From sequence record AB897757.1: 64,000 bases of DNA; one strand, written 5' to 3'. Below, piece by piece: positions 1,394 to 19,860 of the stretch. Position 1 is the first letter of the stretch, and each line of letters begins with the position of its first letter. The DNA comes from Klebsiella phage K64-1. Both the position numbers and the translations under genes were made by a program. The notes beneath the pieces are model-generated. The model worked only from the letters and a program-made list of their open reading frames with translations. It ran no database searches and was not told the origin of the DNA.

Positions 1394-1596
1394 TGAATGA
1401 TTTGGATTCACTGTTGTGGTATACTTTATCTGTTCTTTCATTTGAACGTGATAAACACAAAGTACGAGCTTCTAAAAATCCAGACATATTACAGAAAAAG
1501 AAAGAATACGCATTAGTGTATTCTTTGGAAAAATCATTTATTTCTATGCATCTGGAATACAGAGAATACATAACATCAAATGGTATTAAAAAATGA
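1393..1596 (+). CDS. hypothetical small protein
   Basis: ORF of 67 aa, apparently translationally coupled to its neighbours through an ATGA overlap. Confidence 0.3.
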   Translation: MNDLDSLLWYTLSVLSFERDKHKVRASKNPDILQKKKEYALVYSLEKSFISMHLEYREYITSNGIKK

Positions 1597-1928
1597 AATA
1601 TAAATCCATAGTACACAAAAGATTTAAGTCAATATATTACACGGAAATTAATGTTCATAAAAAAGTAAAAGGTATTGATTTTTATATTGATAAAGTATAT
1701 CTGGATTATGATGTAGTTACTAATACATTCGAATGTACAGACCTCTTTGATTCAATACCAGTACCTAACTTGGCTGAATTGAGTGAAGAAGAAGAATTTC
1801 AGTACTCATTAGTATATGAAGATATATGGGGATTTAAATGGGATTATTATCGAATGGTGTCTTATCAAAAAGCACTAATATCCTCTATAAAAAAACAAAA
1901 TTACTTATTAATTAATCTGGAATATTAA
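1593..1928 (+). CDS. short member of the FQYST-motif paralog family
   Basis: ORF of 111 aa containing 'SEEEEFQYSLVYEDI'. Confidence 0.45.
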   Translation: MKYKSIVHKRFKSIYYTEINVHKKVKGIDFYIDKVYLDYDVVTNTFECTDLFDSIPVPNLAELSEEEEFQYSLVYEDIWGFKWDYYRMVSYQKALISSIKKQNYLLINLEY

Positions 1929-1929
1929 T

Positions 1930-2463
1930 ATGCAAAACAAGTACAATTATAATGACCCCGAATTTGCTACACTCGCATATGATATAGCAAAAATGGTAAA
2001 AGACTTAAAGGAATGTGCTATTGGTACTAAGGATATCAGCACTGTAATGAATACCGATGTAAATTTTAAGAAGGAATTACAGGTAACTGATTCGACAAAT
2101 CCATTGGCTGCATTCAAGAATTGTGTGGTAAATTACTATGGTGTAGTACAATGTAACATCGGATATAAATCCCACGAATGTAATATAGTAACTTTTGATG
2201 CATATGGAAATCTCCATGAAATTGATATTTATAAGGGTCAAAAATTAATCATTAAATTCATGGATAGATATCAATGTAGCATATCATATCATTTCGAATT
2301 ACCAAAAATTGATGGTGCATTCATTGATAATTATGATGCTTATATTTTTCAGTTAAGCACTACAAATGAATATTACAGTATCATTGATTTTGTACTTAGA
2401 ATGAAAATGAAATTCCAGAGTAATTTGTACTTAAAAGGAAGTATCCTTGATCTGGTGTTATAA
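1930..2463 (+). CDS. FQYST-motif family paralog
   Basis: ORF of 177 aa containing 'DAYIFQLSTTNEYYSIIDFV'. Confidence 0.45.
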   Translation: MQNKYNYNDPEFATLAYDIAKMVKDLKECAIGTKDISTVMNTDVNFKKELQVTDSTNPLAAFKNCVVNYYGVVQCNIGYKSHECNIVTFDAYGNLHEIDIYKGQKLIIKFMDRYQCSISYHFELPKIDGAFIDNYDAYIFQLSTTNEYYSIIDFVLRMKMKFQSNLYLKGSILDLVL

Positions 2464-2468
2464 AATAT

Positions 2469-2648
2469 ATGAAAATTTTAACAAAAGAAGAAGTACAAAA
2501 ACGATTAATTGTGCATGAAGATTATAAAACAATGCAAAGATTTTTTGAGATTCGTTTGTTGAATTTTATTGGTACTGATTATCAGAATAATTGTGTAAAT
2601 TTTTATATAAAAATGCTTCGATCTGAAATTAAACTAAAATTAAAATGA
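2469..2648 (+). CDS. small protein of the (L/F)xGT(N/D)(F/Y)Q family; not in the supplied ORF track (59 aa)
   Basis: My translation is MKILTKEEVQKRLIVHEDYKTMQRFFEIRLLNFIGTDYQNNCVNFYIKMLRSEIKLKLK. It shares the 'LNFIGTDYQ' motif with ORFs 4649, 4842, 5038 and 6582. Confidence 0.4.
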   Translation: MKILTKEEVQKRLIVHEDYKTMQRFFEIRLLNFIGTDYQNNCVNFYIKMLRSEIKLKLK

Positions 2649-2821
2649 AAAACATTAATAGTATTCAGTACCTTAAATTGTACAAAAAAGCACTGGATGA
2701 TTCCAATACAATGTTGGAGTTTAATGAAAACTTTTTCATATACGTATTGGGAACTAACTATCAAGAAAAGTTAATGCTTCCATATTTGGAAGCTCTCTGC
2801 TATTCAATGAAGAAAAAATGA
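2645..2821 (+). CDS. small protein of the GT(N/D)(F/Y)Q family (58 aa); not in the ORF track
   Basis: My translation is MKNINSIQYLKLYKKALDDSNTMLEFNENFFIYVLGTNYQEKLMLPYLEALCYSMKKK. It has an ATGA overlap with the upstream ORF. Confidence 0.4.
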   Translation: MKNINSIQYLKLYKKALDDSNTMLEFNENFFIYVLGTNYQEKLMLPYLEALCYSMKKK

Positions 2822-3009: not shown

Positions 3010-3022
3010 TTTATTTGAATCG

Positions 3023-3046
3023 AAAAACCCCTTAATTGGGGTTTTT
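3023..3046 (+). terminator. rho-independent terminator
   Basis: Sequence aaaaacccc-ttaatt-ggggttttt, a GC stem followed by a T-run. Confidence 0.55.
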
Positions 3047-3114
3047 GTAATTGACTTTCTCTATAATTTAATGTACAATGACAATAAATGTTACTAACAT
3101 AGGGGTATTATGTT

Positions 3115-3728: not shown

Positions 3729-3738
3729 AGATGATATA

Positions 3739-5036: not shown

Positions 5037-5037
5037 T

Positions 5038-5220: not shown

Positions 5221-5240
5221 AAATAATTTTTAATTTAAAC

Positions 5241-5268
5241 TTGACATTTGTTAATTTTGTGATATAGT
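5241..5268 (+). promoter_or_regulatory. sigma70-like promoter, TTGACA-N16-TGTGATATAGT
   Basis: TTGACA at 5241-5246 and TATAGT at 5263-5268 with a TGn extended -10. The same architecture recurs at 43160, 52118 and 55975. Confidence 0.5.
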
Positions 5269-5556: not shown

Positions 5557-5564
5557 GGGTTACT

Positions 5565-5847: not shown

Positions 5848-6243
5848 ATGTCATTTATGAAAGATAAAGAATATGCTGACATAATAATTAAAATTATAAA
5901 ACATTTAAAACAACAAAATTCTGATCTAGGAACTTCAAATTTTAATGAATATGCAAGCTTTGGATATTTGTGTTATAATTATAATGAACCAACATTGACT
6001 TATTTTTATGATAAAAAAGACAAAGATTTCGACAAGTTTTTAACTAAGATGGAAGCACTTTCATTTGATATCAGTACAGAAGAAGGTTATTTCCAGGCGT
6101 CTTTGATGTATCCAGATTCACAAATGCGAGTAATATTTTTATTTTCAGAATTGAAAAAGAATTTTAAAAATGATTCATTTGTTATTCCAATGAAGTTACT
6201 AAATGATAATTTAATATATAAAGGTTATGACTGTTATGTCTGA
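5848..6243 (+). CDS. FQYST-motif family paralog
   Basis: ORF of 131 aa containing 'TEEGYFQASLMYPDSQMRVIFLFSELKKNFK'. Confidence 0.55.
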   Translation: MSFMKDKEYADIIIKIIKHLKQQNSDLGTSNFNEYASFGYLCYNYNEPTLTYFYDKKDKDFDKFLTKMEALSFDISTEEGYFQASLMYPDSQMRVIFLFSELKKNFKNDSFVIPMKLLNDNLIYKGYDCYV

Positions 6244-6625
6244 ATTTGAAAAAATTATTAAACGTTGTGAAATGTATTTTTCTTTTATTACCAAAAATAT
6301 AGAAAAAACAGAAAGAGAATATGTTTTAAAATGCGAATACAAAGATAATGGATTTATCTGTTATACACCAGAAAATGATGAATGTTATTTTTATTTTCCA
6401 GATCCAGAATTTGGTTCTTCTGGTATAAAAACAGAAATACCAAATGATGTTCTAACCGAAGAAGGATATTTTCAGTACTCAACTATTTTTGATAATGAAA
6501 AATTATTCAGTATGGTGTTAATGAAATATTTTAAAGATAATTGTGATTTTAGATTTTCTGTAGAGGCTACTGATTGTCTTTTTGATTTCCTACAAAGAAC
6601 AGTGTACAATGAAAATACTAACTGA
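6227..6625 (+). CDS. FQYST-motif family paralog
   Basis: ORF of 132 aa containing 'TEEGYFQYSTIFDNEKLFSMVLMKYFKDNCD'. Confidence 0.55.
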   Translation: MTVMSEFEKIIKRCEMYFSFITKNIEKTEREYVLKCEYKDNGFICYTPENDECYFYFPDPEFGSSGIKTEIPNDVLTEEGYFQYSTIFDNEKLFSMVLMKYFKDNCDFRFSVEATDCLFDFLQRTVYNENTN

Positions 6626-6803
6626 TAGTGATTGCTACAGAATATGTTCTGAAGTATCTTTAAACTCAATCAATAAAAATAAAGCACAACGTGCAGAACT
6701 AATATTAGTAAGATTTATGGGTACAAACTTTGAAGGAATTGCTTTGTATAATTATATGAATTGTTTAATGGAATATTGTAATGAGTTACATAACAGAAAG
6801 TAG
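6582..6803 (+). CDS. small protein of the GT(N/D)(F/Y)Q family, embedded in the FQYST array
   Basis: ORF of 73 aa with motif 'LVRFMGTNFEGIALYNYMNCLMEY'. Confidence 0.4.
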   Translation: MISYKEQCTMKILTDSDCYRICSEVSLNSINKNKAQRAELILVRFMGTNFEGIALYNYMNCLMEYCNELHNRK

Positions 6804-7203
6804 TTACGAAAGAGATATTTTTATGTGTTCAGAAATAATGAGAATTCATGAACGATTTATTGGTCTTGATTCTTCTGCGTGGAGTTTCAGGGAGGATGCA
6901 TATTTAATTTTCAGCCCAGGAACCAAAAATCAAATACAGTACCATCTTTCATCACAAGAACGAAAAGAGTTATTTTTTAATAATTCTGCTTTTCTGAGTT
7001 CAATTGATTTGGATTATCCACTCAAAGAAGACCTTGATTTGTGTACAGAAGAAGGTTATTTTCAGGGTTCATTAATTCTTGACAAAAAATATTTAACAGT
7101 ATATACTATTTTTCAGTTCCTTGATAAAAATTGTAATTCTGCGTTCTCTATTGATATGGTACCTTTTTTGAAGGGGTTTAGACGAAAATATGAAAATAGT
7201 TGA
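6781..7203 (+). CDS. FQYST-motif family paralog
   Basis: ORF of 140 aa containing 'CTEEGYFQGSLILDKKYLTVYTIFQFLDKNCN'. Confidence 0.55.
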   Translation: MSYITESSYERDIFMCSEIMRIHERFIGLDSSAWSFREDAYLIFSPGTKNQIQYHLSSQERKELFFNNSAFLSSIDLDYPLKEDLDLCTEEGYFQGSLILDKKYLTVYTIFQFLDKNCNSAFSIDMVPFLKGFRRKYENS

Positions 7204-7585
7204 TTATGATTACCAAAGGGATCTAGCTATATCTAATATCATTTTGGAACTCTGTGAAGATGATCCTTATTATACTGTAGTTCGAGGGTATAGTAATAAT
7301 GAATACAAAAGTGATGGGTTTTTGGTTTATTCCAATGGAACACCCGTAAATGAAATTCTTGTATTTCCAATGTTCAATGAAATACTACAAAAGAACATGG
7401 TACCAAATAAACTTGTTAAATTAGTCCAAACTGATTTGTTGTCAGAAGAATCATATTTTCAACATAGTACTTTATATGATGCGTTTGAATTACATGTTAT
7501 GTTTATTTTTCAGTACTTAATGAAATATAGTACACATTCAGTATCAATGCCAATGAGATCAATCTGGAATGAATATGAAAAATAG
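7190..7585 (+). CDS. FQYST-motif family paralog
   Basis: ORF of 131 aa containing 'SEESYFQHSTLYDAFELHVMFIFQYLMKYS'. Confidence 0.55.
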   Translation: MKIVDYDYQRDLAISNIILELCEDDPYYTVVRGYSNNEYKSDGFLVYSNGTPVNEILVFPMFNEILQKNMVPNKLVKLVQTDLLSEESYFQHSTLYDAFELHVMFIFQYLMKYSTHSVSMPMRSIWNEYEK

Positions 7586-8108
7586 TTATATCTATGACGA
7601 AAAAGAAAACAAAGATGAACTAATTCAACACATGACTATACAAGAATGTTTTGAATACGCTGATAAAGTAATTGATTTATATAATATCTTACATAATAAA
7701 CCAAAAATCAAAATACTCAATTTAGCTGAACTAGAGTCGGATAAATCAAGAAAACACAAATCTTTTGAATATACAAGTAATGATGATTTGGTTTATTCAG
7801 AAGATAATCATTATTTTGTTGGTACTTCATTTATTGAGATTTATACTGGAATACGATATATTCCAGAGAGTGTTCATAAAATATTAGGTATAACATCAGG
7901 TGGTGGAACATCAAACCTTATTGATATCGGTGATGTTATCATTGAGAACACTGAAGAGGATATTTTCCAGTACAGCACAGTTTACAATGATCACGAATTG
8001 AAGCATTTGATTATTTTAAGTGCAATTAAAAAGAATAAGTGTAGAGAGTTCTTTATGGATTTGAATTATTTGGAATTTTTATTAGATTATCATTATAACT
8101 TAAATTAA
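7569..8108 (+). CDS. FQYST-motif family paralog
   Basis: ORF of 179 aa containing 'TEEDIFQYSTVYNDHELKHLIILSAIKKNKC'. Confidence 0.55.
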   Translation: MNMKNSYIYDEKENKDELIQHMTIQECFEYADKVIDLYNILHNKPKIKILNLAELESDKSRKHKSFEYTSNDDLVYSEDNHYFVGTSFIEIYTGIRYIPESVHKILGITSGGGTSNLIDIGDVIIENTEEDIFQYSTVYNDHELKHLIILSAIKKNKCREFFMDLNYLEFLLDYHYNLN

Positions 8109-8117
8109 AAAAACATC

Positions 8118-8639
8118 ATGAAATCAATTTATACTGAAAGTATTAAAATCATTAATGACATTGATGATTTCTTTAAATATGTAAATTCAAATTCTTATTA
8201 TGCACTTCATAATTTGAATATACTAATTTTTGATCATCCAGGTTCTGTTATTTCTGCATTTGAACCTAAAAATTTTTATCAAATCTGTTTAATTAGAGAT
8301 AATGTCCAGGAATCAATTTTTAAGGTATCATTGAATACAAGATATGAATACTGGAACGAATCAAAAATGTTCTATTTCGACGCGAGCAGAAATGAATTTT
8401 CAATATGTGAAAAAACAAAAATACAAAACACTGTTGATATTTTGGAATATGATAACAATATAGAAGAGTTAGCATTCCAGTACAGTACTGAAGTACAACT
8501 GGAATTTGTTCCTGTTTGTGTATTGGCTTCATACTTAAAGAAAAATCACGACCCGAAATATCCATTATTTAAACTGATACTCAATGATGTTGATTTTTTA
8601 TTAAAACGATTCAAGGAAATAGAAGATTATGATTGGTAA
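8118..8639 (+). CDS. FQYST-motif family paralog
   Basis: ORF of 173 aa containing 'IEELAFQYSTEVQLEFVPVCVLASYLKKNHD'. Confidence 0.55.
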   Translation: MKSIYTESIKIINDIDDFFKYVNSNSYYALHNLNILIFDHPGSVISAFEPKNFYQICLIRDNVQESIFKVSLNTRYEYWNESKMFYFDASRNEFSICEKTKIQNTVDILEYDNNIEELAFQYSTEVQLEFVPVCVLASYLKKNHDPKYPLFKLILNDVDFLLKRFKEIEDYDW

Positions 8640-9120
8640 TTTAGTTGATTTTGCTTCAGTATCAAAATTCTCAGAAAATTTAATTAGAATTCATAAAGCA
8701 TTTACTGATGGTTTCTTTTTGAAAGTACCGAACTTTTGTACTAAACTGGAAGAAGTACAAGGTGAGTATGAATATTCGGTTATTCAACCAATAAAATGTT
8801 CACAAATGTATACCAGTTTAACTGAAGAATATATTATTGATATTAATGATATATATTTTATATCTTTCAATCCTGATTCAGTACTTGAGATATACATTAA
8901 TGCCGTTAGATCAAAAGTACTTAGTACAAAAGATGTAAATTCATTTGATATATCAGAAGAGGGTTACTTCCAGGGAAGCACGATTTATGAACCAGCAATG
9001 TTAAATTCTATTTTCATTGCATCTGTTCTAAATCGAAGTGATTGTGATAAATTTTATTTTGATTTAGATTATTATGATCTTTGTGTTGAGTATATGGAAA
9101 AATATAATTATGTTCAATGA
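8629..9120 (+). CDS. FQYST-motif family paralog
   Basis: ORF of 163 aa containing 'SEEGYFQGSTIYEPAMLNSIFIASVLNRSDC'. Confidence 0.55.
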   Translation: MIGNLVDFASVSKFSENLIRIHKAFTDGFFLKVPNFCTKLEEVQGEYEYSVIQPIKCSQMYTSLTEEYIIDINDIYFISFNPDSVLEIYINAVRSKVLSTKDVNSFDISEEGYFQGSTIYEPAMLNSIFIASVLNRSDCDKFYFDLDYYDLCVEYMEKYNYVQ

Positions 9121-9601
9121 ACGTATCAGAACTGCACAAGAAATTATTCAAATTATAGTAGCAATAGAATCTACTGATAAAAAGTATGATGATTTCAAAA
9201 GTAATTTTACAGAAAAATATGTTCAGGACTCGGATTTTATTCAGTACTATATTAAAGGTGAAGAAAATGTATTCTATGCAAATGAAACATATATTTGTGA
9301 TTATGACAATTCTTCTAGATTTAATTACATCTGTTTTATTCCAAAATCAAATATTATAGTATTTCGCCTTTGTGATGAATTCGAAACAATATATGAGTAT
9401 GAACTTTTTAAAGATTTTTCAGAAGAACAGGCATTTCAGTACAGTACATTGTACAATTATGATATAATTGAAATGATGATTATGTTCTGGTATTTTAACC
9501 AGATCTACAATGGCTCTTTTTATATTAATATGAATTTATTTGAAAAAGCCAAAAAAATATATGAGAGATATCATGACTTCGAATACAAATCCATTAATTG
9601 A
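9074..9601 (+). CDS. FQYST-motif family paralog (the true start is probably ATG at 9110)
   Basis: ORF containing 'SEEQAFQYSTLYNYDIIEMMIMFWYFNQ'. Confidence 0.55.
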   Translation: MIFVLSIWKNIIMFNERIRTAQEIIQIIVAIESTDKKYDDFKSNFTEKYVQDSDFIQYYIKGEENVFYANETYICDYDNSSRFNYICFIPKSNIIVFRLCDEFETIYEYELFKDFSEEQAFQYSTLYNYDIIEMMIMFWYFNQIYNGSFYINMNLFEKAKKIYERYHDFEYKSIN

Positions 9602-10163
9602 TCACGATAGTCAATTTTTTTACGAAAAAATAACTAATAGTATAGAATTATTAAAAAATATAGTCACTTATTTAAATCAAAATGATATGGAATATGTTGC
9701 TCATAAAACTGGCGATTTGTATTTTTATATTACAAATGAAAACCCTCGTATTATGTCATTCCATACTGGTGAATATTCTTTTATGGATTTTTATACCAGT
9801 ACAGAAAAGAAAGATGGTAGAAATTCAGTAGACATATTCAATAATAAAAAGAAAACGTGTATAGATTTTAATATACTACAAAATACTGATTCTTTTTTTC
9901 TCTCAGATTCCAGAAATGGTGCAGCGAATGTAATTGATGCGTCAAAAATAATCGAATTGCCTATAATTAAAGTTCAAACAGAAGAAGAAAGATTTCAGTA
10001 CAGTACTGTGTATAATGATATTGAATTGCGTAGTATTGAATTGTATTATAAATTTATGAAAGAACAATTGTATTTTTACGTTACATTAGATGGTGTTGAA
10101 GAAATTCAAACTGTACTTCAAACAATACATAATGATTTACCAAAATATATAAGGAAAAAATAA
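9540..10163 (+). CDS. FQYST-motif family paralog (the true start is probably ATG at 9572)
   Basis: ORF containing 'TEEERFQYSTVYNDIELRSIELYYKFMKEQ'. Confidence 0.55.
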   Translation: MKKPKKYMRDIMTSNTNPLIDHDSQFFYEKITNSIELLKNIVTYLNQNDMEYVAHKTGDLYFYITNENPRIMSFHTGEYSFMDFYTSTEKKDGRNSVDIFNNKKKTCIDFNILQNTDSFFLSDSRNGAANVIDASKIIELPIIKVQTEEERFQYSTVYNDIELRSIELYYKFMKEQLYFYVTLDGVEEIQTVLQTIHNDLPKYIRKK

Positions 10164-10660: not shown

Positions 10661-11228
10661 TATCAAATCTTTTAGTACTGAACTGGATGTAATTAAAAAT
10701 ATCATTATTAAGATGATTGAAATTCACAGAACTAAAAGACGATATACGTCTTTTAGCGAAGAAGGTTTTGAACTTGAGCGTGGATTGTTTCATATTGATT
10801 TGATGATTAGTGATTATGAATGTATTTTTAGTTTAAGAAACGATTCGTCTCAAATGAAAAATACTGGGATTGATTTATCCATTATTCCACATCATCAAAT
10901 TATACTTGGTGGTTCTGGAAACGTATACATTTCACCCTTCGAATCTGGATTTAGTAGAAGTATAGCTTTACCAAAAAATGAAGGTAGTGAACCTTACATT
11001 TTAATTAACGATGATGCAATTGATGAATGGAAATTCCAGTTAAGTACATTATACGATCCAATAATCGTTGATATAATCAACCTAGAAGAAGAACTAAGAG
11101 AGCACTTAGCCTCTTTGGAGCACAACAATAATGTATATGCACCTTTGTTATTGGTTGTTGATTTAAAATGTTTAGAAAAGAAAAAACACGATTTGAATTC
11201 TATGCTTGAATTTTTAGAGAACATATAA
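10647..11228 (+). CDS. FQYST-motif family paralog
   Basis: ORF of 193 aa containing 'IDEWKFQLSTLYDPIIVDIINLEEEL'. Confidence 0.5.
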   Translation: MLLSDIKSFSTELDVIKNIIIKMIEIHRTKRRYTSFSEEGFELERGLFHIDLMISDYECIFSLRNDSSQMKNTGIDLSIIPHHQIILGGSGNVYISPFESGFSRSIALPKNEGSEPYILINDDAIDEWKFQLSTLYDPIIVDIINLEEELREHLASLEHNNNVYAPLLLVVDLKCLEKKKHDLNSMLEFLENI

Positions 11229-11231
11229 AAC

Positions 11232-11840
11232 ATGAAATTAGAATATTTCCCAAATTTAGAATACAAACATTGTATTGCTTATTCAATGTTTGTGGAAGAT
11301 TTAATTAACGCATTACATGATCCAGAAATACGAAGAGAATGTGGAATTATAAGAATAGAAAATGATAGATTTTATATCAACACTGGAATTAGAAAAATAG
11401 ATCTGGATATATTAAGTGTAGATACAACCTCTACACCAACATTGATTTCTTCCAGAGTTGGTAATTTCGAATTTTACTGGACTCACTGTTATGAATTCAA
11501 TAAAGATTCTAAACATGATTTTATGATAGATGGTGATTTGTGCGAAAAAATTAAGTACAGTTATGACTATACAGAAGAAATGTTCTTTCAAAACAGCTTA
11601 TTATACAAAAACTGTGATTTGTTTTATATTATATTATTCAATTATTTAAAATGTAATTTAAATCATTCATTCTGTATGGCATCTGCACCCATCCCTGAAG
11701 ATTTTTTTAAATTAATTCCAAATTTACTTTACATTGCTACCGAAAAGGGGTATTATGGTGATCTGTTAGAGTTGATGAAAAACATTCATCCAAATAACAA
11801 CGATAAAAGTTCATATCTATCAGGATTTAGCAATCTATGA
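11232..11840 (+). CDS. FQYST-motif family paralog
   Basis: ORF of 202 aa containing 'TEEMFFQNSLLYKNCDLFYIILFNYLKCN'. Confidence 0.5.
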   Translation: MKLEYFPNLEYKHCIAYSMFVEDLINALHDPEIRRECGIIRIENDRFYINTGIRKIDLDILSVDTTSTPTLISSRVGNFEFYWTHCYEFNKDSKHDFMIDGDLCEKIKYSYDYTEEMFFQNSLLYKNCDLFYIILFNYLKCNLNHSFCMASAPIPEDFFKLIPNLLYIATEKGYYGDLLELMKNIHPNNNDKSSYLSGFSNL

Positions 11841-12400
11841 CATACGAAGAATACAAAAAGACAATACCAGTACTCGCTGAAATTGTTTCATTACTAAAAA
11901 ATCATCTAAGTAAAAGAACCATATACAACGATAGATTCTTCACCTTACCCAAATCCAATTTTTATATAAAACAAATCAATGATGCTGATATTGACATAAG
12001 AATTTCAAAAAATAGTGATTCTATTATTCGCGTTGCAAAAGAATCTCAGTGTTTTGATGGAGAGATTCCTATGTTACTTCGTCAGTTCGGTGATGTATAT
12101 TGTTCATCCAGAAAACACCCAGGGTATATTAAAATATATTCAAGTGAAAGTGACATAGATTTACTTGATGTTGACTGCCCAGAAGAGCAATTATTTCAAT
12201 ACAGTACAATTCTTTCTAATATTGATCTTATCGTGCTTGAACTTGAGTTAGAACTTCAAAAAGTACTAAACGAAAATATTTACTGTGTAATTACATTGTT
12301 CTATGATAATGATTACTATAGTGAATGTGCTTCATATAATGATTATGTAAATCTACGAGATGATTTAAAAGATGAAAAAAGAACATGGGAACATTATTAA
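11837..12400 (+). CDS. FQYST-motif family paralog
   Basis: ORF of 187 aa containing 'PEEQLFQYSTILSNIDLIVLELELEL'. Confidence 0.5.
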   Translation: MTYEEYKKTIPVLAEIVSLLKNHLSKRTIYNDRFFTLPKSNFYIKQINDADIDIRISKNSDSIIRVAKESQCFDGEIPMLLRQFGDVYCSSRKHPGYIKIYSSESDIDLLDVDCPEEQLFQYSTILSNIDLIVLELELELQKVLNENIYCVITLFYDNDYYSECASYNDYVNLRDDLKDEKRTWEHY

Positions 12401-12956
12401 TAACTTAAAAGTTATTAAAGAATTAAGCACTGCTATGATTTTGTTGTACAAAAATACAGACAAAATTAATGCTGATAATTATATTCTAAGTACTACCAGA
12501 TTAAATCCATACGAAAATGGAACATTGTACTTGAGAACAAAAGCATCTCAAAATATCATTGGAATTATGAATGAATCAGTTTGCCTGGAAGAATATGCAT
12601 ACAAAGATGAAGAGGTACCTGGTAATTACAGGGTTATTATACGAGATTCGGCATTCTTCTTATGTAGTCCGATGAATCCATTTTTCAATAAAATATATGC
12701 TGATTTTAATTATACAAATGGTGTTGAAACTTTTCCTATTCCCAGTGAAGATACATGGGAAGAAGAGATGTTTCAACTATCATTAGTAGTACCAAATATG
12801 GTATGTTCCGAAGTACTGGAATTATATAAAGAAATACACAATAATATTGAAAGTCATTTTTATATTTCATATGAATATGAAAATTATGATACCACATTAT
12901 TAAAAGATGCATTAAATGACGTTAAAAAATTTATCAAGCACTACATCAACAAATGA
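12372..12956 (+). CDS. FQYST-motif family paralog
   Basis: ORF of 194 aa containing 'WEEEMFQLSLVVPNMVCSEVLELYKEIHNN'. Confidence 0.5.
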   Translation: MKKEHGNIINNLKVIKELSTAMILLYKNTDKINADNYILSTTRLNPYENGTLYLRTKASQNIIGIMNESVCLEEYAYKDEEVPGNYRVIIRDSAFFLCSPMNPFFNKIYADFNYTNGVETFPIPSEDTWEEEMFQLSLVVPNMVCSEVLELYKEIHNNIESHFYISYEYENYDTTLLKDALNDVKKFIKHYINK

Positions 12957-13494
12957 TACTGAAATGTACTTATTGTACAAAAATATTTTACTTGAATTAA
13001 AAAGATTATTGCATACTGTTAATGTACGCGATAATTATCTACATCAAGATATAAATGGTGAAATTTATTGTATAATTTCTGATGGTAAAATCGCATTATA
13101 TGCTAATTCCGAAAATATAGCATTCACTTATGTTTTATTTGCTTATTCGTTTAATTCACCAAATTACGTATCAGAAAAATATAGAGTAGAATATGATTCA
13201 TATGTATACTTTGATCGTGATAATTCAACTAATGAATATATGATTAATCACGAAACAAATAATATCATCCAATTGATTAAAGAAAATGAGTTGAGTTCAG
13301 ATGAATTAGAAAGTTTATTATTCCAACACAATACATTGTATTCAGATGAAGATAAATTTTGTATTTGGATGGATTATTATATCAGAGATTACATTGAAGA
13401 TAAACATTATTTCTGTGTAAACTATAACAAATTAAATGAATTCAGTACTGATATATATGAAAATATTCTATTGGAATTAAAGAAATATGATTGA
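12916..13494 (+). CDS. FQYST-motif family paralog (alternative start about 12958)
   Basis: ORF containing 'ELESLLFQHNTLYSDEDKFCIWMDYY'. Confidence 0.5.
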   Translation: MTLKNLSSTTSTNDTEMYLLYKNILLELKRLLHTVNVRDNYLHQDINGEIYCIISDGKIALYANSENIAFTYVLFAYSFNSPNYVSEKYRVEYDSYVYFDRDNSTNEYMINHETNNIIQLIKENELSSDELESLLFQHNTLYSDEDKFCIWMDYYIRDYIEDKHYFCVNYNKLNEFSTDIYENILLELKKYD

Positions 13495-14098
13495 ATTAAA
13501 ATTTAAAATACAAGAACTAAAAGAACTGGTAATTCACTTAAAGAATGTAAATGATAAATTCCATCTCTCAGAAAATTTCATGATTTATATTCCAGGTACC
13601 GAATCAACACTCATTCACGAAATGTCAACAAAAGGGATATATTCCAATATTACATTGAAATCAAGAGATTACAAAACTAATATCTATTACAACACCATCT
13701 CTTTAATCAGGAGTTCAGATCCCTCTGAAGAACGTATCAGGAAATCTAAAACAGTAGGTTCAATTTATAGTAGTTCATGTAATATATATTCTTTATCCGA
13801 TAATACCAAAATGCAGATTGGTATATATGAAAACTATCATAGAAAGTGTGATACCAGTGAAAATGGAACTATTGAATTGCCTGATTATGTAAAAGATTCT
13901 GATGAATTTGAAGCATTATTATTTCAATACAGTACAGAGAGTGATATTAAGTACAATAGATTATTAAAAATGCGTATCATAAAAGAAATATATGATGTAC
14001 TTCAATATGAAGAAATATCAATCGATGATACTTTATTTGATTTGGATTCAAATGATTTGAAAACAATTATACAGGAATTGAAATTAAAATTATGCTAA
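13487..14098 (+). CDS. FQYST-motif family paralog
   Basis: ORF of 203 aa containing 'EFEALLFQYSTESDIKYNRLLKMRII'. Confidence 0.5.
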   Translation: MIELKFKIQELKELVIHLKNVNDKFHLSENFMIYIPGTESTLIHEMSTKGIYSNITLKSRDYKTNIYYNTISLIRSSDPSEERIRKSKTVGSIYSSSCNIYSLSDNTKMQIGIYENYHRKCDTSENGTIELPDYVKDSDEFEALLFQYSTESDIKYNRLLKMRIIKEIYDVLQYEEISIDDTLFDLDSNDLKTIIQELKLKLC

Positions 14099-14655
14099 CA
14101 TTGTCCGAAATTCTGGAATACGATAATAAAATTATCAATCTCTTGGGTGATATATCATTTGAATTCAACAAAAAAGAAGATAAAAACAACAATAAAGCCA
14201 CTATACTGAAAGTAAATGATAGTGAATTAGTTGTATTAGAAAATAATCTTCATTTTTATTCTGTTGTACTTAAAGTGTATAATGGTATGTCAGAAACTCC
14301 GTGGTATATGGTGAAAAACACAGATGATTATGATACATTTCGTGGTATTAAACCATTCATCAACGAGTATGGTATTTTTTGTACCGCAAATGATTACGAT
14401 GTATTATATGATGAATACGATCAATTCGGTACTGTTCATAACGTACTAACAGAAGAACAGTACGCTTGTATAGAAAGCACTGCGTTTCAGTTGAGTACAG
14501 AGTTTGATTTACAAGTAGTAAGGGCATTATCAATGCAAACCAATTTGTATTACAACAAAAGACACTATCAAATAATGTGTAATACAAAAATTCAGGATCA
14601 TTTATATAATCCAAAATTAATTTTAAATCTAGAAAAATATCTGGAAACACTATGA
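14092..14655 (+). CDS. FQYST-motif family paralog
   Basis: ORF of 187 aa containing 'IESTAFQLSTEFDLQVVRALSMQTN'. Confidence 0.5.
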   Translation: MLTLSEILEYDNKIINLLGDISFEFNKKEDKNNNKATILKVNDSELVVLENNLHFYSVVLKVYNGMSETPWYMVKNTDDYDTFRGIKPFINEYGIFCTANDYDVLYDEYDQFGTVHNVLTEEQYACIESTAFQLSTEFDLQVVRALSMQTNLYYNKRHYQIMCNTKIQDHLYNPKLILNLEKYLETL

Positions 14656-15143
14656 AAGAAATTATTGAATTAATAGAATTGATGCAGTCAAGTATAAGTT
14701 CATGTAAACTTGCAACCGGTGAACATAATTTGAATGCTGATTTTGATTTAGTAGTCAATAATCAAAAGAAATGTATTCACTTGATTAAAAAATCCAGTAC
14801 TAAAGCAATCAAACATACAGCACTCATGATAGCTTCTTCACATCCTGCTAAAAAATATAATTCAAATATTGCTAATATAAGTTCACTGTACAAACCAGAA
14901 AGTACATCTTCATATATCAGTTCAATTAAAAGTGAATTAGATTTTCATAAATGCACTTTGGATTCTTATGAAGAATTAGAATTTCAGTACAGTACGGTAA
15001 TTACACGAAGTGATATTTTTATAATTCAATGCTTGTTATATTCAATTGATTTTAAAGATAATGTGTACATGACAAATGATTTTATGAAATATAATTATAT
15101 TGAAATACTCAGATCATTAAAGGACAAATTATGCCAAAATTAG
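14652..15143 (+). CDS. FQYST-motif family paralog
   Basis: ORF of 163 aa containing 'YEELEFQYSTVITRSDIFIIQCLLYSIDFKDN'. Confidence 0.5.
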   Translation: MKEIIELIELMQSSISSCKLATGEHNLNADFDLVVNNQKKCIHLIKKSSTKAIKHTALMIASSHPAKKYNSNIANISSLYKPESTSSYISSIKSELDFHKCTLDSYEELEFQYSTVITRSDIFIIQCLLYSIDFKDNVYMTNDFMKYNYIEILRSLKDKLCQN

Positions 15144-15721
15144 ATGCACAGTACTGTGATAAATTACTGAATGCATTGATTACTATACAAAAGAATATAA
15201 AAAAAGAAAAGAGTATTCAAATTTACTATAATGATAGTTATATTCTTGTACAATGCAACCCAGATGGTAATTATGTAGAGTTCAGTTTAAAGAAAGAAGA
15301 TGTTCATGATTGTATTAGTATTGATTTGCATGAAGCAACACCGCATCAAAGTTTAAAAAATATTATTAAAGCATATAAAAGAACTACTTATGCATTTGAC
15401 ACGTTAGTTCACAGATATAAAACATTTTATTGTATGTTTGATACAGACGAATATGATTTCAATTTAGTAGGATTTGATGAAAACATCATTAGCATTCCTT
15501 ATGATTTTGATGATGAATTATATTTTCAGTACAGTACTTTATATAGTTTACCACCACAGAGTGATCTTGAGCTTCACAAAAGTATTCATAAAAAATGCAA
15601 AAATGAACTACCAAATAAAAGTGTAGTTAGAATTTCATATCTATCCATCGAATTAGATCAACAAGAAATGGATGAAATTCTGGAATCTTTGTATTCATTG
15701 GTTCCTGTGTTTAAGCATTAA
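15131..15721 (+). CDS. FQYST-motif family paralog
   Basis: ORF of 196 aa containing 'DDELYFQYSTLYSLPPQSDLELHKSIHKK'. Confidence 0.5.
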   Translation: MPKLDAQYCDKLLNALITIQKNIKKEKSIQIYYNDSYILVQCNPDGNYVEFSLKKEDVHDCISIDLHEATPHQSLKNIIKAYKRTTYAFDTLVHRYKTFYCMFDTDEYDFNLVGFDENIISIPYDFDDELYFQYSTLYSLPPQSDLELHKSIHKKCKNELPNKSVVRISYLSIELDQQEMDEILESLYSLVPVFKH

Positions 15722-15747
15722 AATCCCCCTTGACTGGGGTTTTTTTA
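15722..15747 (+). terminator. weak rho-independent terminator or attenuator inside the paralog array
   Basis: Sequence aatccccc-ttgact-ggggttttttt. Confidence 0.4.
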
Positions 15748-16404
15748 TTTGTTATAATAAAAAATAGAGAATATAAAATGAAAAAAGAATCATATAACAT
15801 ACTTCGTGTATGTGAAAATTTAATATTGTTGTTACTGGCTTATAAGAAAAATATAAATTTAAGCAAGAAAATTCTTGATTATCATATTAATATTAATATT
15901 ACTTGTAGTAATCATATTTCAATATATTTAAATATTAGTAATTTTGGTTCTATTACAACAACATCATCCAACATCATTTCATTTAATGCTGATAATATTC
16001 AACCAGTTGAATTAAATTTACCAATTGAAGATATTAAAGGTGAAATGATTTATTTTGATGACCGATATTGTGAATATGATGTTAATAGTCCAAATTTAGT
16101 AGGAGCGTATTTAAAAAAATATGATCCTGATATTGATGGATACAATGAAACAAATTGCCATGAAGTAATGGAAAAGACGTATGATGAATGGGCTTTTCAG
16201 TACAGTACATTATATGATTTTGTTCCAGATAAAGAAGATTATTTTTACTTGAAAAATTTCATGCATAATTTGGGTAACGAATTCGATTATACATATTCAA
16301 ATATTTTATTTGAATCAAAAGTGGATATTGTGAATCTAAAATCTGCAATTGATATATGTACCGAAACTGTTAAAAGGAAGATTGATGAAAACTCCGATAT
16401 TTGA
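15730..16404 (+). CDS. FQYST-motif family paralog (the true start is probably ATG at 15778)
   Basis: ORF containing 'TYDEWAFQYSTLYDFVPDKEDYFYLKNFMHN'. Confidence 0.5.
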   Translation: MTGVFLFVIIKNREYKMKKESYNILRVCENLILLLLAYKKNINLSKKILDYHININITCSNHISIYLNISNFGSITTTSSNIISFNADNIQPVELNLPIEDIKGEMIYFDDRYCEYDVNSPNLVGAYLKKYDPDIDGYNETNCHEVMEKTYDEWAFQYSTLYDFVPDKEDYFYLKNFMHNLGNEFDYTYSNILFESKVDIVNLKSAIDICTETVKRKIDENSDI

Positions 16405-16900
16405 AAAATCAAAGAAATATGCACAACGTATATCTGATTGTATTGAACTTATACAATTAATGAGAAAAACTTTTTACGTAAATCACAAAGGTTCTTTTCG
16501 ATATCAACATGAAAATAATGGACTTATTACCATGAGCAGAGGCAAATCGCCTTTTGGTGAGGTTATATTAACATATGTACCAGATAATATTCATATTCCG
16601 TTCAATGATAATTATCTAATAGAAATATCAAATTATATTCCAGTACTAGATTATACAGAAGAAACCGAATTTCAATATAGTACTTTGTATAATAATGAAG
16701 AATTGTTAATGCATTATATATATTCCATTCTATGGAATTTGAACATCAAAGGGAAAATTCATATAAACCCAAAAATAAATTTAAGAACATATACAATGGC
16801 ATTGAAAAATATGTATAGTTATTTTCAGGACACAAATTATAATTTATATAAAGAATTGTGTAATAAAAAATTCAAATCAATGGAAATAAACTACTTATGA
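16349..16900 (+). CDS. FQYST-motif family paralog (the true start is probably ATG at 16385)
   Basis: ORF containing 'TEETEFQYSTLYNNEELLMHYIYSILWNLN'. Confidence 0.5.
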   Translation: MIYVPKLLKGRLMKTPIFEKSKKYAQRISDCIELIQLMRKTFYVNHKGSFRYQHENNGLITMSRGKSPFGEVILTYVPDNIHIPFNDNYLIEISNYIPVLDYTEETEFQYSTLYNNEELLMHYIYSILWNLNIKGKIHINPKINLRTYTMALKNMYSYFQDTNYNLYKELCNKKFKSMEINYL

Positions 16901-17481
16901 TTGAAAGATATGAGTTTAGTACAAGAATATTAAATGAAGCACTCAAAAAAGTTCCATCAATTGTAGAAAAACATAGTAAATTATATTCTAAGTACAATAG
17001 TAATAGTACATTCAATGTTGGTATTAAAAATCAGAATTATGAAACTAACATTGATGATAGTTCCATTGAATATGGTTCAGCAAATGGTTCTTCATGGACA
17101 ATTGAATTTGACAATTCACTCCATGATTATTATAACTGGACACCAGAATATAATGAATTTAGCTTTAATACATCATCTGTTGCTTTTTTGGTTAGTAGTG
17201 AACATATGTTGTACGCTCTTTATGATTTTAATACTGAAATTTTTATAATTGAAGACACCGATTTATCTTTTGAAGTAAATTGTATAGATTCGCTACGTGA
17301 AATGATTTTTACATTACAACTGGAGTACTCAGATATTATTGAGACTGAATTACTATGGAGTATGCTATCACCGATGATTGAGTTTAAAAAGCTGTTGACA
17401 CCTGACAAAGATGTTGCTATTATATTTGAACCACATAGACAAGAGTTTTTAGAATTAAATCCAGAGATACCAAACGTATGA
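16897..17481 (+). CDS. degenerate FQYST-family paralog or hypothetical protein
   Basis: ORF of 194 aa with only a weak 'IFTLQLEYSDIIETELLWSML' match at the motif position. Confidence 0.4.
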   Translation: MIERYEFSTRILNEALKKVPSIVEKHSKLYSKYNSNSTFNVGIKNQNYETNIDDSSIEYGSANGSSWTIEFDNSLHDYYNWTPEYNEFSFNTSSVAFLVSSEHMLYALYDFNTEIFIIEDTDLSFEVNCIDSLREMIFTLQLEYSDIIETELLWSMLSPMIEFKKLLTPDKDVAIIFEPHRQEFLELNPEIPNV

Positions 17482-17888
17482 TTCTATATCACTGTAGTAC
17501 TGTAAAAATTGACAGCTTTTATATCCCCTTTGGTGGCTTACATTTTGGTGGTATTAATAGTGCTTTAGAAGCGGCGTTACGTAAGCTGAGAAGCCCACGA
17601 AACACGTTGGATCACAAGGAGATACATATCCATAAATGTTTCGTGGAACTCGGTAAAACACAGCACAGTGAGGATTTGGGTGGTGAGGATTCGTGGAGAG
17701 CGGTGATCGATGAATGCTCACGATTAGGATTTAATTCAGTACAATATAAGAATGTATATGAACCTGATTCAGTACCTAGCTATATGATTTGGGACGCCAG
17801 TAGAGTAAAAATCATAGAAGTGGATTGTATTCATATGGATGACGCCGAACAAATACTGGAAGAATTTTATGATTCACACTGTACTTAA
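17478..17888 (+). CDS. hypothetical protein of atypical, higher-GC composition inserted in the paralog array
   Basis: ORF of 136 aa. Its codon usage is visibly GC-richer than the flanks and it lacks the FQYST motif. Confidence 0.45.
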   Translation: MILYHCSTVKIDSFYIPFGGLHFGGINSALEAALRKLRSPRNTLDHKEIHIHKCFVELGKTQHSEDLGGEDSWRAVIDECSRLGFNSVQYKNVYEPDSVPSYMIWDASRVKIIEVDCIHMDDAEQILEEFYDSHCT

Positions 17889-17908
17889 ACTAATACAGGT
17901 AACGATTC

Positions 17909-18460
17909 ATGTCAGAACCAATAGAATATTTTAAAGCATGTTCTCGTTTGGTTAATTCAATTTCAAAGGATTTTTTATCAAGAAAACCAAAAGAGTATAT
18001 TGATGATGTACTTGGATATAATTTTATATTATATTATGGTTTTAGTTCATTAAGAATTTCAGTTGATGATGAAAACGAAACACCTGTACTTACAATGTTT
18101 AATGTTGATCACATCACATGTAACCCAGAAGTATTTCATGAACCACGTTGGTGCCTACCTAATATTGTTAACAGTGGTGTTCAATGTGGTTTTGTGAAAA
18201 AAATTGACCACCGTTTTGATTCAGACGATGAACTCAGAGAACACGAGAATGATTTTAGTGCTAAGTTATTCTCTGATACTTTAACTGAAGAAGAATATTT
18301 TCAGTACAGTACGGTGATGAAATTAAATACATTGGAATATTATCTGGAATGGAATAAAACTATAATGCAAGACAATACAAATGAAAAAGTTGTTTGGCAT
18401 TGGTATTATGGTGATTTCATTTCAAAAGAAGCTATTGATGAATTATCAAAAAGAATATAA
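17909..18460 (+). CDS. FQYST-motif family paralog
   Basis: ORF of 183 aa containing 'TEEEYFQYSTVMKLNTLEYYLEWNK'. Confidence 0.5.
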   Translation: MSEPIEYFKACSRLVNSISKDFLSRKPKEYIDDVLGYNFILYYGFSSLRISVDDENETPVLTMFNVDHITCNPEVFHEPRWCLPNIVNSGVQCGFVKKIDHRFDSDDELREHENDFSAKLFSDTLTEEEYFQYSTVMKLNTLEYYLEWNKTIMQDNTNEKVVWHWYYGDFISKEAIDELSKRI

Positions 18461-18472
18461 TAAGGATTAAAA

Positions 18473-18961
18473 ATGATGCTTGACATTATCGGAAATTTAG
18501 ATATAGTTAATCAAATCATTCAATCAGCAATTGATGATATTAAGAAGAAGGAGATTGAGGTACGATGGAATTTCTTATCGTCTGATATTGGATACCTTGT
18601 TGATATTAGTGAACCAACAAAGAAACAAATGGTTGTACAAATCAATGCACTAAGTAACAGGCAATCTCTCTGTAAATTTTATATTACAAAGAATGGGATA
18701 ATTCTCAGATATAATAATAAATTGTTGTTTGAATACAAAAACAGTACTAAAACATTCATTACAAATTTATTCGATGAACCATTTTATATTGATGATTTAG
18801 AAAGTACTTTTTTTACTCAAAGATGTTTAAATTCGTTTGGTTCATTGGATAATATAGTATTTGATTATGATATCATGACTGAAACATTAAAGAAAACACA
18901 GGATTTATATTATGCCTACTTGGTGTTTACCCAAAAACGAGAAAATGCTAACACAGCCTGA
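18473..18961 (+). CDS. degenerate FQYST-family paralog
   Basis: ORF of 162 aa containing 'DDLESTFFTQRCLNSFGSLDNIVF'. Confidence 0.4.
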   Translation: MMLDIIGNLDIVNQIIQSAIDDIKKKEIEVRWNFLSSDIGYLVDISEPTKKQMVVQINALSNRQSLCKFYITKNGIILRYNNKLLFEYKNSTKTFITNLFDEPFYIDDLESTFFTQRCLNSFGSLDNIVFDYDIMTETLKKTQDLYYAYLVFTQKRENANTA

Positions 18962-19391
18962 CGATAGCGTATATAAGTGTATTGAGCATTTTGATTATTT
19001 TATTAATTCAAAAAAAGAATTTATTGTGGTTGATTGTATACCATTGTATTTCATTAAATCCGATTCAAATACAATCAAAGAATTTAATATGTACTATGGT
19101 AGTGAATTTATATCAATTAAATTAATCAATAAATGTTTGAAAAATTCTTATTCAATTGAAAGTTATTACAATGGAATATTTTTGCTCGGTATTAGCAATG
19201 AGTACATCAATTCAGTACTATTAAAATCAAACACAAATGAACCAGTTTATGCTGATCGAGAAGCATTCAATGAAATCGATTTCTTCCAGTATACATGTGG
19301 TGATGCTTATATACCATTACACACCAATACGATGTGTTTAGTTAAAGATAAATTGTTGGAGATTGAAAATGATTTCAAAAAATACTATTAA
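18912..19391 (+). CDS. FQYST-family paralog (alternative start about 18945)
   Basis: ORF of 159 aa containing 'FNEIDFFQYTCGDAYIPLH'. Confidence 0.45.
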   Translation: MPTWCLPKNEKMLTQPDDSVYKCIEHFDYFINSKKEFIVVDCIPLYFIKSDSNTIKEFNMYYGSEFISIKLINKCLKNSYSIESYYNGIFLLGISNEYINSVLLKSNTNEPVYADREAFNEIDFFQYTCGDAYIPLHTNTMCLVKDKLLEIENDFKKYY

Positions 19392-19860
19392 AACTGGAAT
19401 GCAATGTTTGATTGATTATTTTGAAAATTCTAAATTATGCCCTGAAGTGCTGAGAGGCGATCACACATTTCATTACTACGGTGATGATATTCAGATTATA
19501 GTTGGATTTCATACATTAAAACTTTGTATTATTGATAATAAAAATTCAAATTGTTTTATTTTCTCTCCAGTAAAAATGCGAGAAGATGATATTTGCACCG
19601 AATTCGGGACTATTGTTGCTGTAATTGATGATGATGGTAGAAAAACACATGTATACGATACACTATTCATTGAAAGTTCTACATTGTTTCAATTGAGTTT
19701 AATTCATGATATCAATATTGATGGATTGGATATATTGATGTATAAGTATAGTGAATTACTTGAATTACTAGGGAAATCTAAAATTAATCACAATACTAAA
19801 TACATTAAAGAAGCATGTGATAATTTATCAAAAGCTCACGTGCAATACTCTAACGAATAA
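19363..19860 (+). CDS. FQYST-family paralog, last member of the array
   Basis: ORF of 165 aa containing 'IESSTLFQLSLIHDINIDGLDILMYKYSELL'. Confidence 0.45.
   Translation: MKMISKNTIKTGMQCLIDYFENSKLCPEVLRGDHTFHYYGDDIQIIVGFHTLKLCIIDNKNSNCFIFSPVKMREDDICTEFGTIVAVIDDDGRKTHVYDTLFIESSTLFQLSLIHDINIDGLDILMYKYSELLELLGKSKINHNTKYIKEACDNLSKAHVQYSNE

Follow-up and report, generated by a model that had tools for sequence, protein, structure and literature searches.

The multigene families of large eukaryotic DNA viruses, among them MGF360, MGF505 and MGF110 of African swine fever virus (ASFV) and the ankyrin/PRANC genes of poxviruses, vary in copy number between lineages and encode non-structural proteins which are presumed or have been shown to deal with the host. 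In phages, the host-takeover module of SPO1 and the pre-early region of T5 group about 15-25 small early genes behind strong promoters of the host type and are located at or beside long terminal repeats, while the internal proteins IPI-III of T4 are small polymorphic accessory proteins with an anti-defence role that are packaged and cleaved. The RaK2-like jumbo phages are under development against multidrug-resistant Klebsiella and E. coli, and over half of their genes lack an assigned function. We analyzed here a stretch of 64,000 nucleotides from one such genome, that of Klebsiella phage K64-1 (sequence record AB897757.1; this whole stretch is called the window below), whose first 20 kb carry a tandem array of diverged paralogous genes. 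An original prediction made from the sequence had described them as a tandem array of ~18 kb, of exceptional scale and with a hypervariable N-terminus. The family proved to be real and well delimited; it is neither hypervariable, nor unique in its scale, nor arranged in an uninterrupted 18 kb. It constitutes an undescribed protein family with an orphan fold, in an organisation already familiar for large viruses.

The array resembles the ASFV and poxvirus families in being composed of tens of diverged tandem paralogues in an accessory arm of the genome and, by analogy only, it combines tandem diverged paralogues with a lineage-variable copy number as the ASFV multigene families do. However, it shows no sequence or fold kinship with them, its copy number is fixed within the genus, its genes are under purifying selection, and a terminal location, beside the terminal repeat, is seen only in phage CBB. 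The SPO1 and T5 clusters are made of unrelated genes, whereas the array is one expanded family whose early timing is predicted only. An expansion of similar size in a single jumbo-phage lineage is the ~35-copy family of Bacillus phage G (PMC7824862), which concerns a zinc ribbon rather than an orphan alpha/beta domain. This example, together with the 35-38 copies found in phages 121Q and Sharanji (see below), indicates that calling the array exceptional for a phage was an overstatement.

The first 20 kb of the window are 96-98% identical at the nucleotide level, over 100% of the query, to seven Klebsiella jumbo-phage records of the genus Alcyoneusvirus (~346-358 kb), which include RCIP0023, Muenster, RaK2 (two records) and KP13-7. 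In these records the products of the array region are annotated as 'hypothetical', except that two are called putative membrane proteins and one, in Muenster, a 'putative ADP-ribosyl transferase'. In the rest of the window, the matching Muenster genes bear annotations of non-structural, T4-early-type functions, such as Dam methylase, RNA ligase, PseT kinase, DNA ligase, dCMP deaminase and NAD salvage enzymes. The array sits in this non-structural arm of the genome and has a G+C content of 25-29%, against ~30-34% further along the window. The genome had been called T4-like; it is of the RaK2 type and related to T4 only distantly (PMC5259590).

A search with the regular expression FQx[STN] found the motif shared by the array proteins in 26 open reading frames (ORFs), all on the + strand between 1593 and 19860. 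All-against-all BLAST connects just 11 of these 26 ORFs. An iterative hidden Markov model (HMM), run against a 20-fold excess of shuffled decoys, recruits 21 ORFs, the best decoy in any round being no better than E=0.015. To avoid circularity, an independent HMM was built from 104 database representatives, none of which reaches 80% identity to a window protein. This second model detects 22 window ORFs at E<2e-4 (those listed as members in Table 1, including the outlying one at 1593), while the best of ~2,000 shuffled decoys reaches E=6e-4. Twenty of the 22 are packed between 5848 and 16900. Four further ORFs, at 1930, 13487 (ALLFQYSTES), 18912 and 19363, carry a degenerate motif only and bring the total to ~26, as first counted. 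Two other genes that had been taken for degenerate members, 16897 and 18473, are not detectable as members by the HMMs. The tandem arrangement is genuine but interrupted, as 3.4 kb (2469-5837) are occupied by other small genes. The L-K-K-N element assigned to the shared module does exist but is restricted to the 5' half of the array. All array genes lie head to tail, and most of them overlap the next gene by 1-29 nucleotides, almost throughout, in keeping with the operon-like layout recognized at the outset.

The shared motif can be written [ST]-E-E-x-[YF]-F-Q-x-S-[TL]-h-[YH], h standing for a hydrophobic residue. Conservation is strongest over these 13 residues and weaker at hydrophobic positions downstream. 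In an alignment of 127 sequences, F114 and Q115 (numbering of the protein encoded at 8629) do not vary, and E110, E111 and S117 are almost invariant. Outside the motif the proteins drift to less than 25% identity; about 40 conserved columns are distributed along the whole protein, the hydrophobic ones falling in the first helix (8, 12, 15, 18, 21), in the strands (78, 80, 86, 88) and in the last helices. An AlphaFold2 model of the 8629 protein was built with this alignment (predicted local distance difference test, pLDDT, 83.6; predicted template modelling score, pTM, 0.80). It starts with a helix (8-26) followed by a gap-rich stretch, residues ~27-75, to which both low confidence and low alignment occupancy are limited. 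Three strands (77-80, 86-90 and 93-98), which make up a small beta sheet, then lead to the motif helix, 110-119 (EEGYFQGSTI, capped by S109), which is predicted with pLDDT >90 and precedes a helix (122-136), a strand (142-145) and a last helix (146-158). Each protein is therefore predicted to form a single alpha/beta domain in which the variable part is an insert located after a conserved amphipathic N-terminal helix. Since this helix and the beta strands are conserved too, homology extends to the whole protein and is not limited to a C-terminal module. The proteins are small (111-210 amino acids) and acidic, with an isoelectric point (pI) of 4.3-5.2 for 20 of 23. They carry neither a signal peptide nor a hydrophobic segment long enough to span a membrane.

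The domain, which had not been recognized from the sequence, is not assigned by Pfam (best E=0.012, below the cut-off and with a different family for each protein), by NCBIfam (nothing) or by PADLOC (one stray match, E=0.003, for one of the 23 family proteins submitted). PHROGs profiles do match: phrog_12674 in 12 of the 23 window proteins (best E=4e-52), phrog_9317 in nine (9e-33) and phrog_22855 in five (1.5e-96). However, all three are clusters of the same RaK2-like phage proteins with the mention 'unknown function'; the family is scattered there over many small clusters to which neither a motif nor a structure nor a function is attached, and neither its unity nor its tandem organisation is noted. 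Matches in BFVD at E<=0.1 are to uncharacterised proteins only, the named ones coming from RaK2, 121Q and SP27. Weaker matches (E 0.28-1.2) are mainly from Yersinia phage fHe-Yen9-04, GAP32 and Serratia phage BF, and unrelated viruses appear only at E>1. No relative of known function was therefore found in Pfam, NCBIfam, PADLOC, PHROGs or BFVD, and the predicted fold is without known relative. A literature search for this family, its motif or the array retrieved no description, and the family is unmentioned in a survey of jumbo phages (PMC7824862) and in the genome papers on RaK2, CBB, fEgEco12 and Sharanji.

The motif is usually encoded by TTT CAG TAC AGT ACx, though CAA and TAT are about three times commoner than CAG and TAC genome-wide. 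The window contains 165 copies of the palindrome AGTACT, where base composition predicts ~21. ORFs account for 147 of them, against 38.8 +/- 5.7 when codons are shuffled synonymously, an approximately fourfold excess (for CAGTACT, 75 against 9.4 expected), and the word is about ninefold enriched in coliphage 121Q. Rare codons and excess of the word could suggest that the apparent motif merely mirrors a genome-wide over-representation of (C)AGTACT(G). However, in 121Q the residue following Q varies (Y, Q, N, G, L, E, K, H or M) while F, Q and S are fixed, and many motif copies are encoded without AGTACT, for instance by TTT CAA AAA TCA TTA. Since F, Q and S stay fixed without the word and ~40 columns are conserved protein-wide (EE, T/L, h, Y and some 30 more), and since full-length HMM scores reach up to 50-100 bits, the motif is not a by-product of AGTACT and such a DNA artefact can be dismissed. 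The reservation attached to the original prediction, that nothing might be conserved outside 'QYST', is thereby lifted: a genome-wide DNA-level preference shapes the motif codons but does not create the motif. The word itself occurs in all codon frames (for instance at 5285, 5389, 8484 and 10002) and is the fifth commonest hexamer of the window. In 121Q, CAGTACTG is present 31 times against 0.3 expected. This 6-8-bp palindrome, (C)AGTACT(G), is enriched, not avoided, in two phage genera and could serve for modification or binding.

A profile search run exhaustively on 1.84 billion representatives returned 120 clusters at E<=0.001; 121 of the 124 proteins retrieved from them carry the motif. 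The clusters sampled trace to metagenome assemblies and to contigs of ~355-371 kb that are labelled E. coli or Salmonella. Two divergent representatives, P0025 and P0124, gave no match by tblastn against cultured phages, their lineages being found in metagenomes or bacterial assemblies only. From this search the family appears confined to RaK2-like jumbo phages. The array differs in size between related phages, a point the original prediction had left to be checked. The window holds 22 solid copies (independent HMM at E<2e-4), or ~26 when those with a degenerate motif are included. Outside the window, as counted with profile A2 at E<=1e-3, there are 35 copies in a 40-kb region of 121Q and 38 in Sharanji, both of the genus Asteriusvirus, and at least 17 in a 12-kb part of a metagenomic contig. 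The first 30 kb of CBB hold two weak copies without the motif, the range for this phage being about 2-6 weak copies. The authors who described RaK2 noted that ~10% of its proteins are paralogues (PMC3622015).

Gene order is maintained over large distances. From 5848 to 13487 the array has collinear reciprocal best hits (RBHs) on the metagenomic contig, at 34-58% identity, so that the order is kept in a relative of only ~45% identity, and the 3' end (14652 to 21773) is collinear with 121Q. Between the window and 121Q the family members share 22-38% identity, against 60-64% for the gene at 17478 and the neighbouring gene at 19902. Within the genus, all seven full-length Alcyoneusvirus records cover 100% of the region and gene content is fixed. 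In four pairwise comparisons with other Alcyoneusvirus genomes, the pooled ratio of nonsynonymous to synonymous substitution rates (dN/dS) is 0.17-0.20 for the family and 0.13-0.19 for other genes; it is 0.21-0.24 upstream of the motif and 0.10-0.16 in the remainder. The hypervariable N-terminus initially proposed is not borne out by these values, which indicate purifying selection even in that part. Neither the raised dN/dS nor the presence/absence turnover between close strains that characterize a diversifying family was observed within Alcyoneusvirus. DNA likeness between paralogues is limited to ~30-100 nucleotides around the motif, which argues against recent duplication or gene conversion, and likeness between copies falls off slightly with distance along the array (Spearman -0.18, permutation p=0.015). 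Because gene content is fixed and gene order kept, the variation corresponds to old divergence between paralogues, concentrated in the insert. Genus-level conservation, low dN/dS and the shortness of the paralogue DNA repeats together show that the expansion, by tandem duplication, is ancient; each copy has been kept since, and copies diverge quickly between genera. As judged from the low dN/dS, the collinear RBHs and the positional orthologues in 121Q, each copy appears to have been kept for a function.

True intergenic gaps are rare in the array, and those inspected carry regulatory-looking elements (Table 1). Only promoter candidates located inside real intergenic gaps were retained; the one at 5241 falls in the gap between 5220 and 5347, ahead of the main array. 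From these elements the array is predicted to comprise two units, delimited by sigma-70-like promoters (5241 and 15730) and hairpin terminators (15720 and 19863). At 15720-15758 the same ~40 nucleotides would hold both a terminator and a promoter.

The tandem mass spectrometry list of RaK2 virion proteins (Table S3 of its authors) contains 54 proteins, none of which comes from the array (gp397-398 and gp412-439), a difference from the packaged IPI-III of T4. The structural genes of RaK2 were all mapped by its authors to two other clusters (PMC3622015). In CBB, a 22,456-bp terminal repeat is followed after 64 bp by the block syntenic with the array's 3' end. The CBB authors predicted RpoD-like promoters concentrated upstream of an arm of short hypothetical ORFs, CBB_390-546, and proposed this arm, and possibly also the terminal repeat downstream, as early genes (PMC5259590). 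The Sharanji record (OR545507.1) begins and ends inside its array, and the corresponding paper reports 20.7-kb terminal repeats without coordinates. The array may sit at or in the physical genome end in these phages. Early expression is predicted from this context.

Other genes occur in and around the array. A second family of ~60-70 amino acids, with a core of the LGTNFQ/LGTDxQ (LGTNFQ/MGTNFE) type, is represented by seven copies supported by an HMM against decoys (Table 1). One of them, at 6582 on the + strand, is interleaved in the main array and has an RBH, L007_4361, on the metagenomic contig. The second family, with other ORFs of ~100 amino acids, fills the 2469-5837 interval, where there are no main-family genes. 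It is greatly expanded in Asteriusvirus: the two Sharanji loci together hold 30 copies, 28 of which are crowded into ~8 kb of L010, and the 121Q locus has at least 13. The run of ~100-amino-acid ORFs suggested by eye a third family with the pattern h-(E/D)-Y-L-x-x-K-Y ('EYLxxKY'), shared by 196-468, 453-764, 1055-1393, 3115-3438, 3435-3728, 3739-4056, 4019-4363 and 4356-4652. It is unproven, an HMM seeded with 3115, 3739, 4019 and 4356 having recruited nothing above decoys.

The GC-richer gene at 17478, rightly set apart in the original prediction as an unrelated insertion, is found at the same position in three genera, with 60% identity to the 121Q gene and 43% to that of CBB. Residues H5, Y15, H22 and E95 are invariant among the three proteins. 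The Muenster depositors labelled it a putative ADP-ribosyltransferase from HHpred. This label was not reproduced: Pfam and NCBIfam were empty, as were phmmer and a three-sequence profile run on PDB sequences, and RecA matches were rejected as an artefact of score summing over a concatemer chain. Just 3' of the array, four genes (19902-20378, 20558-21451, 21441-21749 and 21773-22159) share 47-64% identity with 121Q and CBB and are far better conserved across genera than array members; Pfam and NCBIfam searches gave no match for them. Further along the window, two ClpP-like protease subunits annotated in Muenster map to 44199-44966 and 48575-49171, and the syntenic Muenster region carries no annotated partner of the ClpX/ClpA type.

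Table 1. Features of the array region. E-values in gene rows are those of the independent HMM unless stated. aa, amino acids. RBH targets: L002, 121Q locus; L007, metagenomic contig (12-kb part). Other loci: L008, CBB 1-30000; L009 and L010, ends of Sharanji OR545507.1.
Feature	Coordinates	Strand	Evidence and remarks
Outlying member, 111 aa, LSEEEEFQYSLVYED	1593..1928	+	E=2.8e-5; RBH 121Q L002_2903
Divergent probable member, 177 aa, YIFQLSTTNEYY	1930..2463	+	Motif only, iterative HMM E ~1; RBH 121Q L002_15825 matches A2 profile
Second-family copies	2469-2648, 2645-2821, 2818-3009, 4649-4858, 4842-5036, 5038-5220, 6582-6803		HMM against decoys
Terminator-like hairpin CCCC-N5-GGGG + T run	3023..3053	+	Direct repeat D20, copy of 15721-15751; in gap 3009-3115
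Sigma-70-like promoter: A-rich tract, TTGACA, 16-nucleotide spacer, TG-n-TATAGT	5241..5268	+	11/12 match, extended -10
Member, 131 aa, STEEGYFQASLMY	5848..6243	+	E=5e-17; RBH L007_3245
Member, 132 aa, LTEEGYFQYSTIF	6227..6625	+	E=3e-19; RBH L007_3615
Member, 140 aa, CTEEGYFQGSLIL	6781..7203	+	E=2e-13; RBH L007_4531, 58% identity
Member, 131 aa, LSEESYFQHSTLY	7190..7585	+	E=6e-13
Member, 179 aa, NTEEDIFQYSTVY	7569..8108	+	E=4e-21
Member, 173 aa, NIEELAFQYSTEV	8118..8639	+	E=1e-10; RBH L007_5794
Member, 163 aa, ISEEGYFQGSTIY	8629..9120	+	E=2e-23; AlphaFold2 pLDDT 83.6, pTM 0.80
Member, likely start 9110, 163 aa, FSEEQAFQYSTLY	9074..9601	+	E=7e-21
Member, likely start 9573, 196 aa, QTEEERFQYSTVY	9540..10163	+	E=2.5e-14; RBH L007_7300
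Member, 165 aa, DTEEEWFQYSTLY	10163..10660	+	E=1e-20; first AlphaFold2 model
Member, 193 aa, AIDEWKFQLSTLY	10647..11228	+	E=5e-8; RBH L007_8359
Member, 202 aa, YTEEMFFQNSLLY	11232..11840	+	E=7e-17; RBH in L007 (54%) and in 121Q
Member, 187 aa, CPEEQLFQYSTIL	11837..12400	+	E=2e-11
Member, 194 aa, TWEEEMFQLSLVV	12372..12956	+	E=9e-11; 52% identity to P0007 / L007_10001
Member, likely start 12964, 176 aa, ELESLLFQHNTLY	12916..13494	+	E=2e-6
Probable member, 203 aa, EFEALLFQYSTES	13487..14098	+	Motif, size, position, RBH L007_11122; below threshold in both HMMs
Member, 187 aa, CIESTAFQLSTEF	14092..14655	+	E=1.4e-4
Member, 163 aa, SYEELEFQYSTVI	14652..15143	+	E=5e-7; RBH 121Q L002_25533
Member, 196 aa, FDDELYFQYSTLY	15131..15721	+	E=8e-11
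Intrinsic-terminator hairpin (CCCC-ttgac-tGGGG + T7) overlapping a sigma-70-like promoter (TTGACT, 17-nucleotide spacer, TATAAT)	15720..15758	+	
Member, real start ATG 15778, 208 aa, TYDEWAFQYSTLY	15730..16404	+	E=1.7e-4; start codon read from sequence
Member, likely start 16385, 171 aa, YTEETEFQYSTLY; sole basic member, pI 8.7	16349..16900	+	E=2e-14
Acidic 194-aa gene, not detectable as a member	16897..17481	+	E=0.22, without motif; RBH 121Q L002_27217
Unrelated GC-richer gene, 136 aa	17478..17888	+	GC 0.387 against a family mean of 0.272
Member, 183 aa, LTEEEYFQYSTVM	17909..18460	+	E=1.4e-5; RBH 121Q L002_28816
Non-member gene	18473..18961	+	Conserved in 121Q (41%) and CBB (32%)
Possible degenerate member, 159 aa, IDFFQYTCGD	18912..19391	+	Motif remnant only, without HMM support
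Probable degenerate member, STLFQLSLIHD	19363..19860	+	E=0.008; 121Q orthologue L002_30171 matches A2 profile
Terminator-like hairpin + T run closing the array	19863..19879	+	

The array encodes a conserved, non-virion, soluble and acidic single-domain family, organised in operon-like units and kept copy by copy. The roles evoked from the start (host takeover, anti-defence or exclusion) are plausible. We tentatively favour, with somewhat less than even confidence, an old multigene family acting as an early intracellular effector repertoire for host takeover or anti-defence. The units would be transcribed early in infection by the host RNA polymerase and their products would stay in the cytoplasm. 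Each paralogue would bind a different target, either a host takeover target or an anti-phage defence protein, through its own variable insert and surface, while the conserved core would maintain the fold and possibly a shared contact. Seen in this way, the array would be a phage equivalent of the multigene families of large eukaryotic DNA viruses and of the SPO1 and T5 clusters. Copy numbers that differ between genera are what one would expect if the genes are accessory and deal with the host. The promoter-like and terminator-like elements of the gaps, the T4-early-type annotations of neighbouring genes and the putative ADP-ribosyltransferase gene at its conserved position are likewise in favour of an early, accessory role. 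Several points weigh against such a repertoire. Purifying selection and a gene content fixed within the genus are less than would be expected of a front-line arms-race repertoire. In the model, the invariant polar residues E, E, Q and S lie on one helix, which could mean a common ligand or a catalytic site beyond the upkeep of the fold. A promoter scan of the whole region found 182 sites where 174 were expected and is not informative in DNA so rich in A+T, and a literature search on expression in RaK2-like phages found nothing specific.

The same polar helix leads to another, rather unlikely, possibility, in which it would dock all paralogues on one partner while the insert selects a substrate. 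Such an adaptor repertoire could use as partner a phage ClpP-like protease or the putative ADP-ribosyltransferase lying in the array, host proteins being degraded or modified as a result. The near-invariance of the motif residues among sequences that otherwise share so little is consistent with a common docking surface, as are the two ClpP-like proteases annotated inside the window and the presence, within the array of three genera, of the gene bearing the unreproduced ADP-ribosyltransferase label. However, the motif helix is predicted to lie within the domain beside conserved hydrophobic positions, as would a purely structural element, and co-occurrence with ClpP is uninformative inside a single phage group. 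In its full combinatorial form, with an EE-x-x-FQ-x-S helix docking on either enzyme, the hypothesis is a little more doubtful still. If true, ~25-38 paralogues would each recruit a different host protein, defence proteins included, for destruction or modification. The system would then be a phage analogue of the F-box or PRANC substrate receptors of eukaryotic viruses and parallel the host-range strategy of these phages, which relies on multiple depolymerases.

The proteins could instead serve the phage itself, as chaperones, scaffolds or organisers of replication or assembly for so large a virion and genome. Such core-like roles fit the long-standing purifying selection and strict positional orthology, as well as the limitation of the family to a single phage group. 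This is nonetheless rather improbable: copy number ranges from the few weak copies of CBB to the 38 of Sharanji, identity between genera is far lower than for neighbouring genes, and the genes lie outside both structural clusters (PMC3622015). The early, accessory context would also be compatible with superinfection exclusion or immunity, each paralogue neutralising an effector of a competitor phage or blocking its entry. Immunity-gene clusters typically consist of diverged small proteins encoded in tandem. However, the family lacks the membrane segment or signal peptide of most exclusion proteins, cognate toxin genes are absent nearby, and fold comparison with solved immunity proteins revealed no similarity, which makes this reading improbable.

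A role as internal head proteins injected with the DNA, the motif being a maturation cleavage site, is largely refuted and very improbable. S/T-E-E loosely resembles the x-x-E sites of prohead proteases, and the T4 internal-protein loci are polymorphic; the motif, however, is predicted to be helical, no array product is found in the virion, and the genes are outside the structural clusters. The same low probability applies to the proteins as substrates or decoys of a Gln-specific protease, the motif resembling the sites of tobacco etch virus (TEV) protease (ExxYxQ|G/S) or 3C protease (LFQ|G): EEGYFQGS (6781, 8629) and E-x-LLFQ (12916, 13487) match these consensuses literally, but the residue after Q is mostly Y (54), L (26) or N (18) of 127, not G, S or A, the segment forms a confidently predicted helix inside the fold, and the syntenic Muenster region has no gene annotated as a 3C- or NIa-like protease. 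The virion proteome, and the helix with the residue following Q, respectively, essentially exclude these two readings, as protein-wide conservation does the DNA artefact.

The family represents ~4% of the genes of RaK2-type phages (22 of 534 RaK2 ORFs) and ~6% of those of 121Q and Sharanji (35-38 of ~600 ORFs). An orphan fold, an invariant polar motif and copies preserved over a long time make it a well-defined place to seek host-takeover or anti-defence activities, and the natural variants borne by one scaffold should help to find which part of the protein sets target specificity. If the array proves dispensable, ~12 kb could be removed in genome engineering. If it does encode an anti-defence or adaptor repertoire, it would help to explain how RaK2-like phages cope with many hosts.

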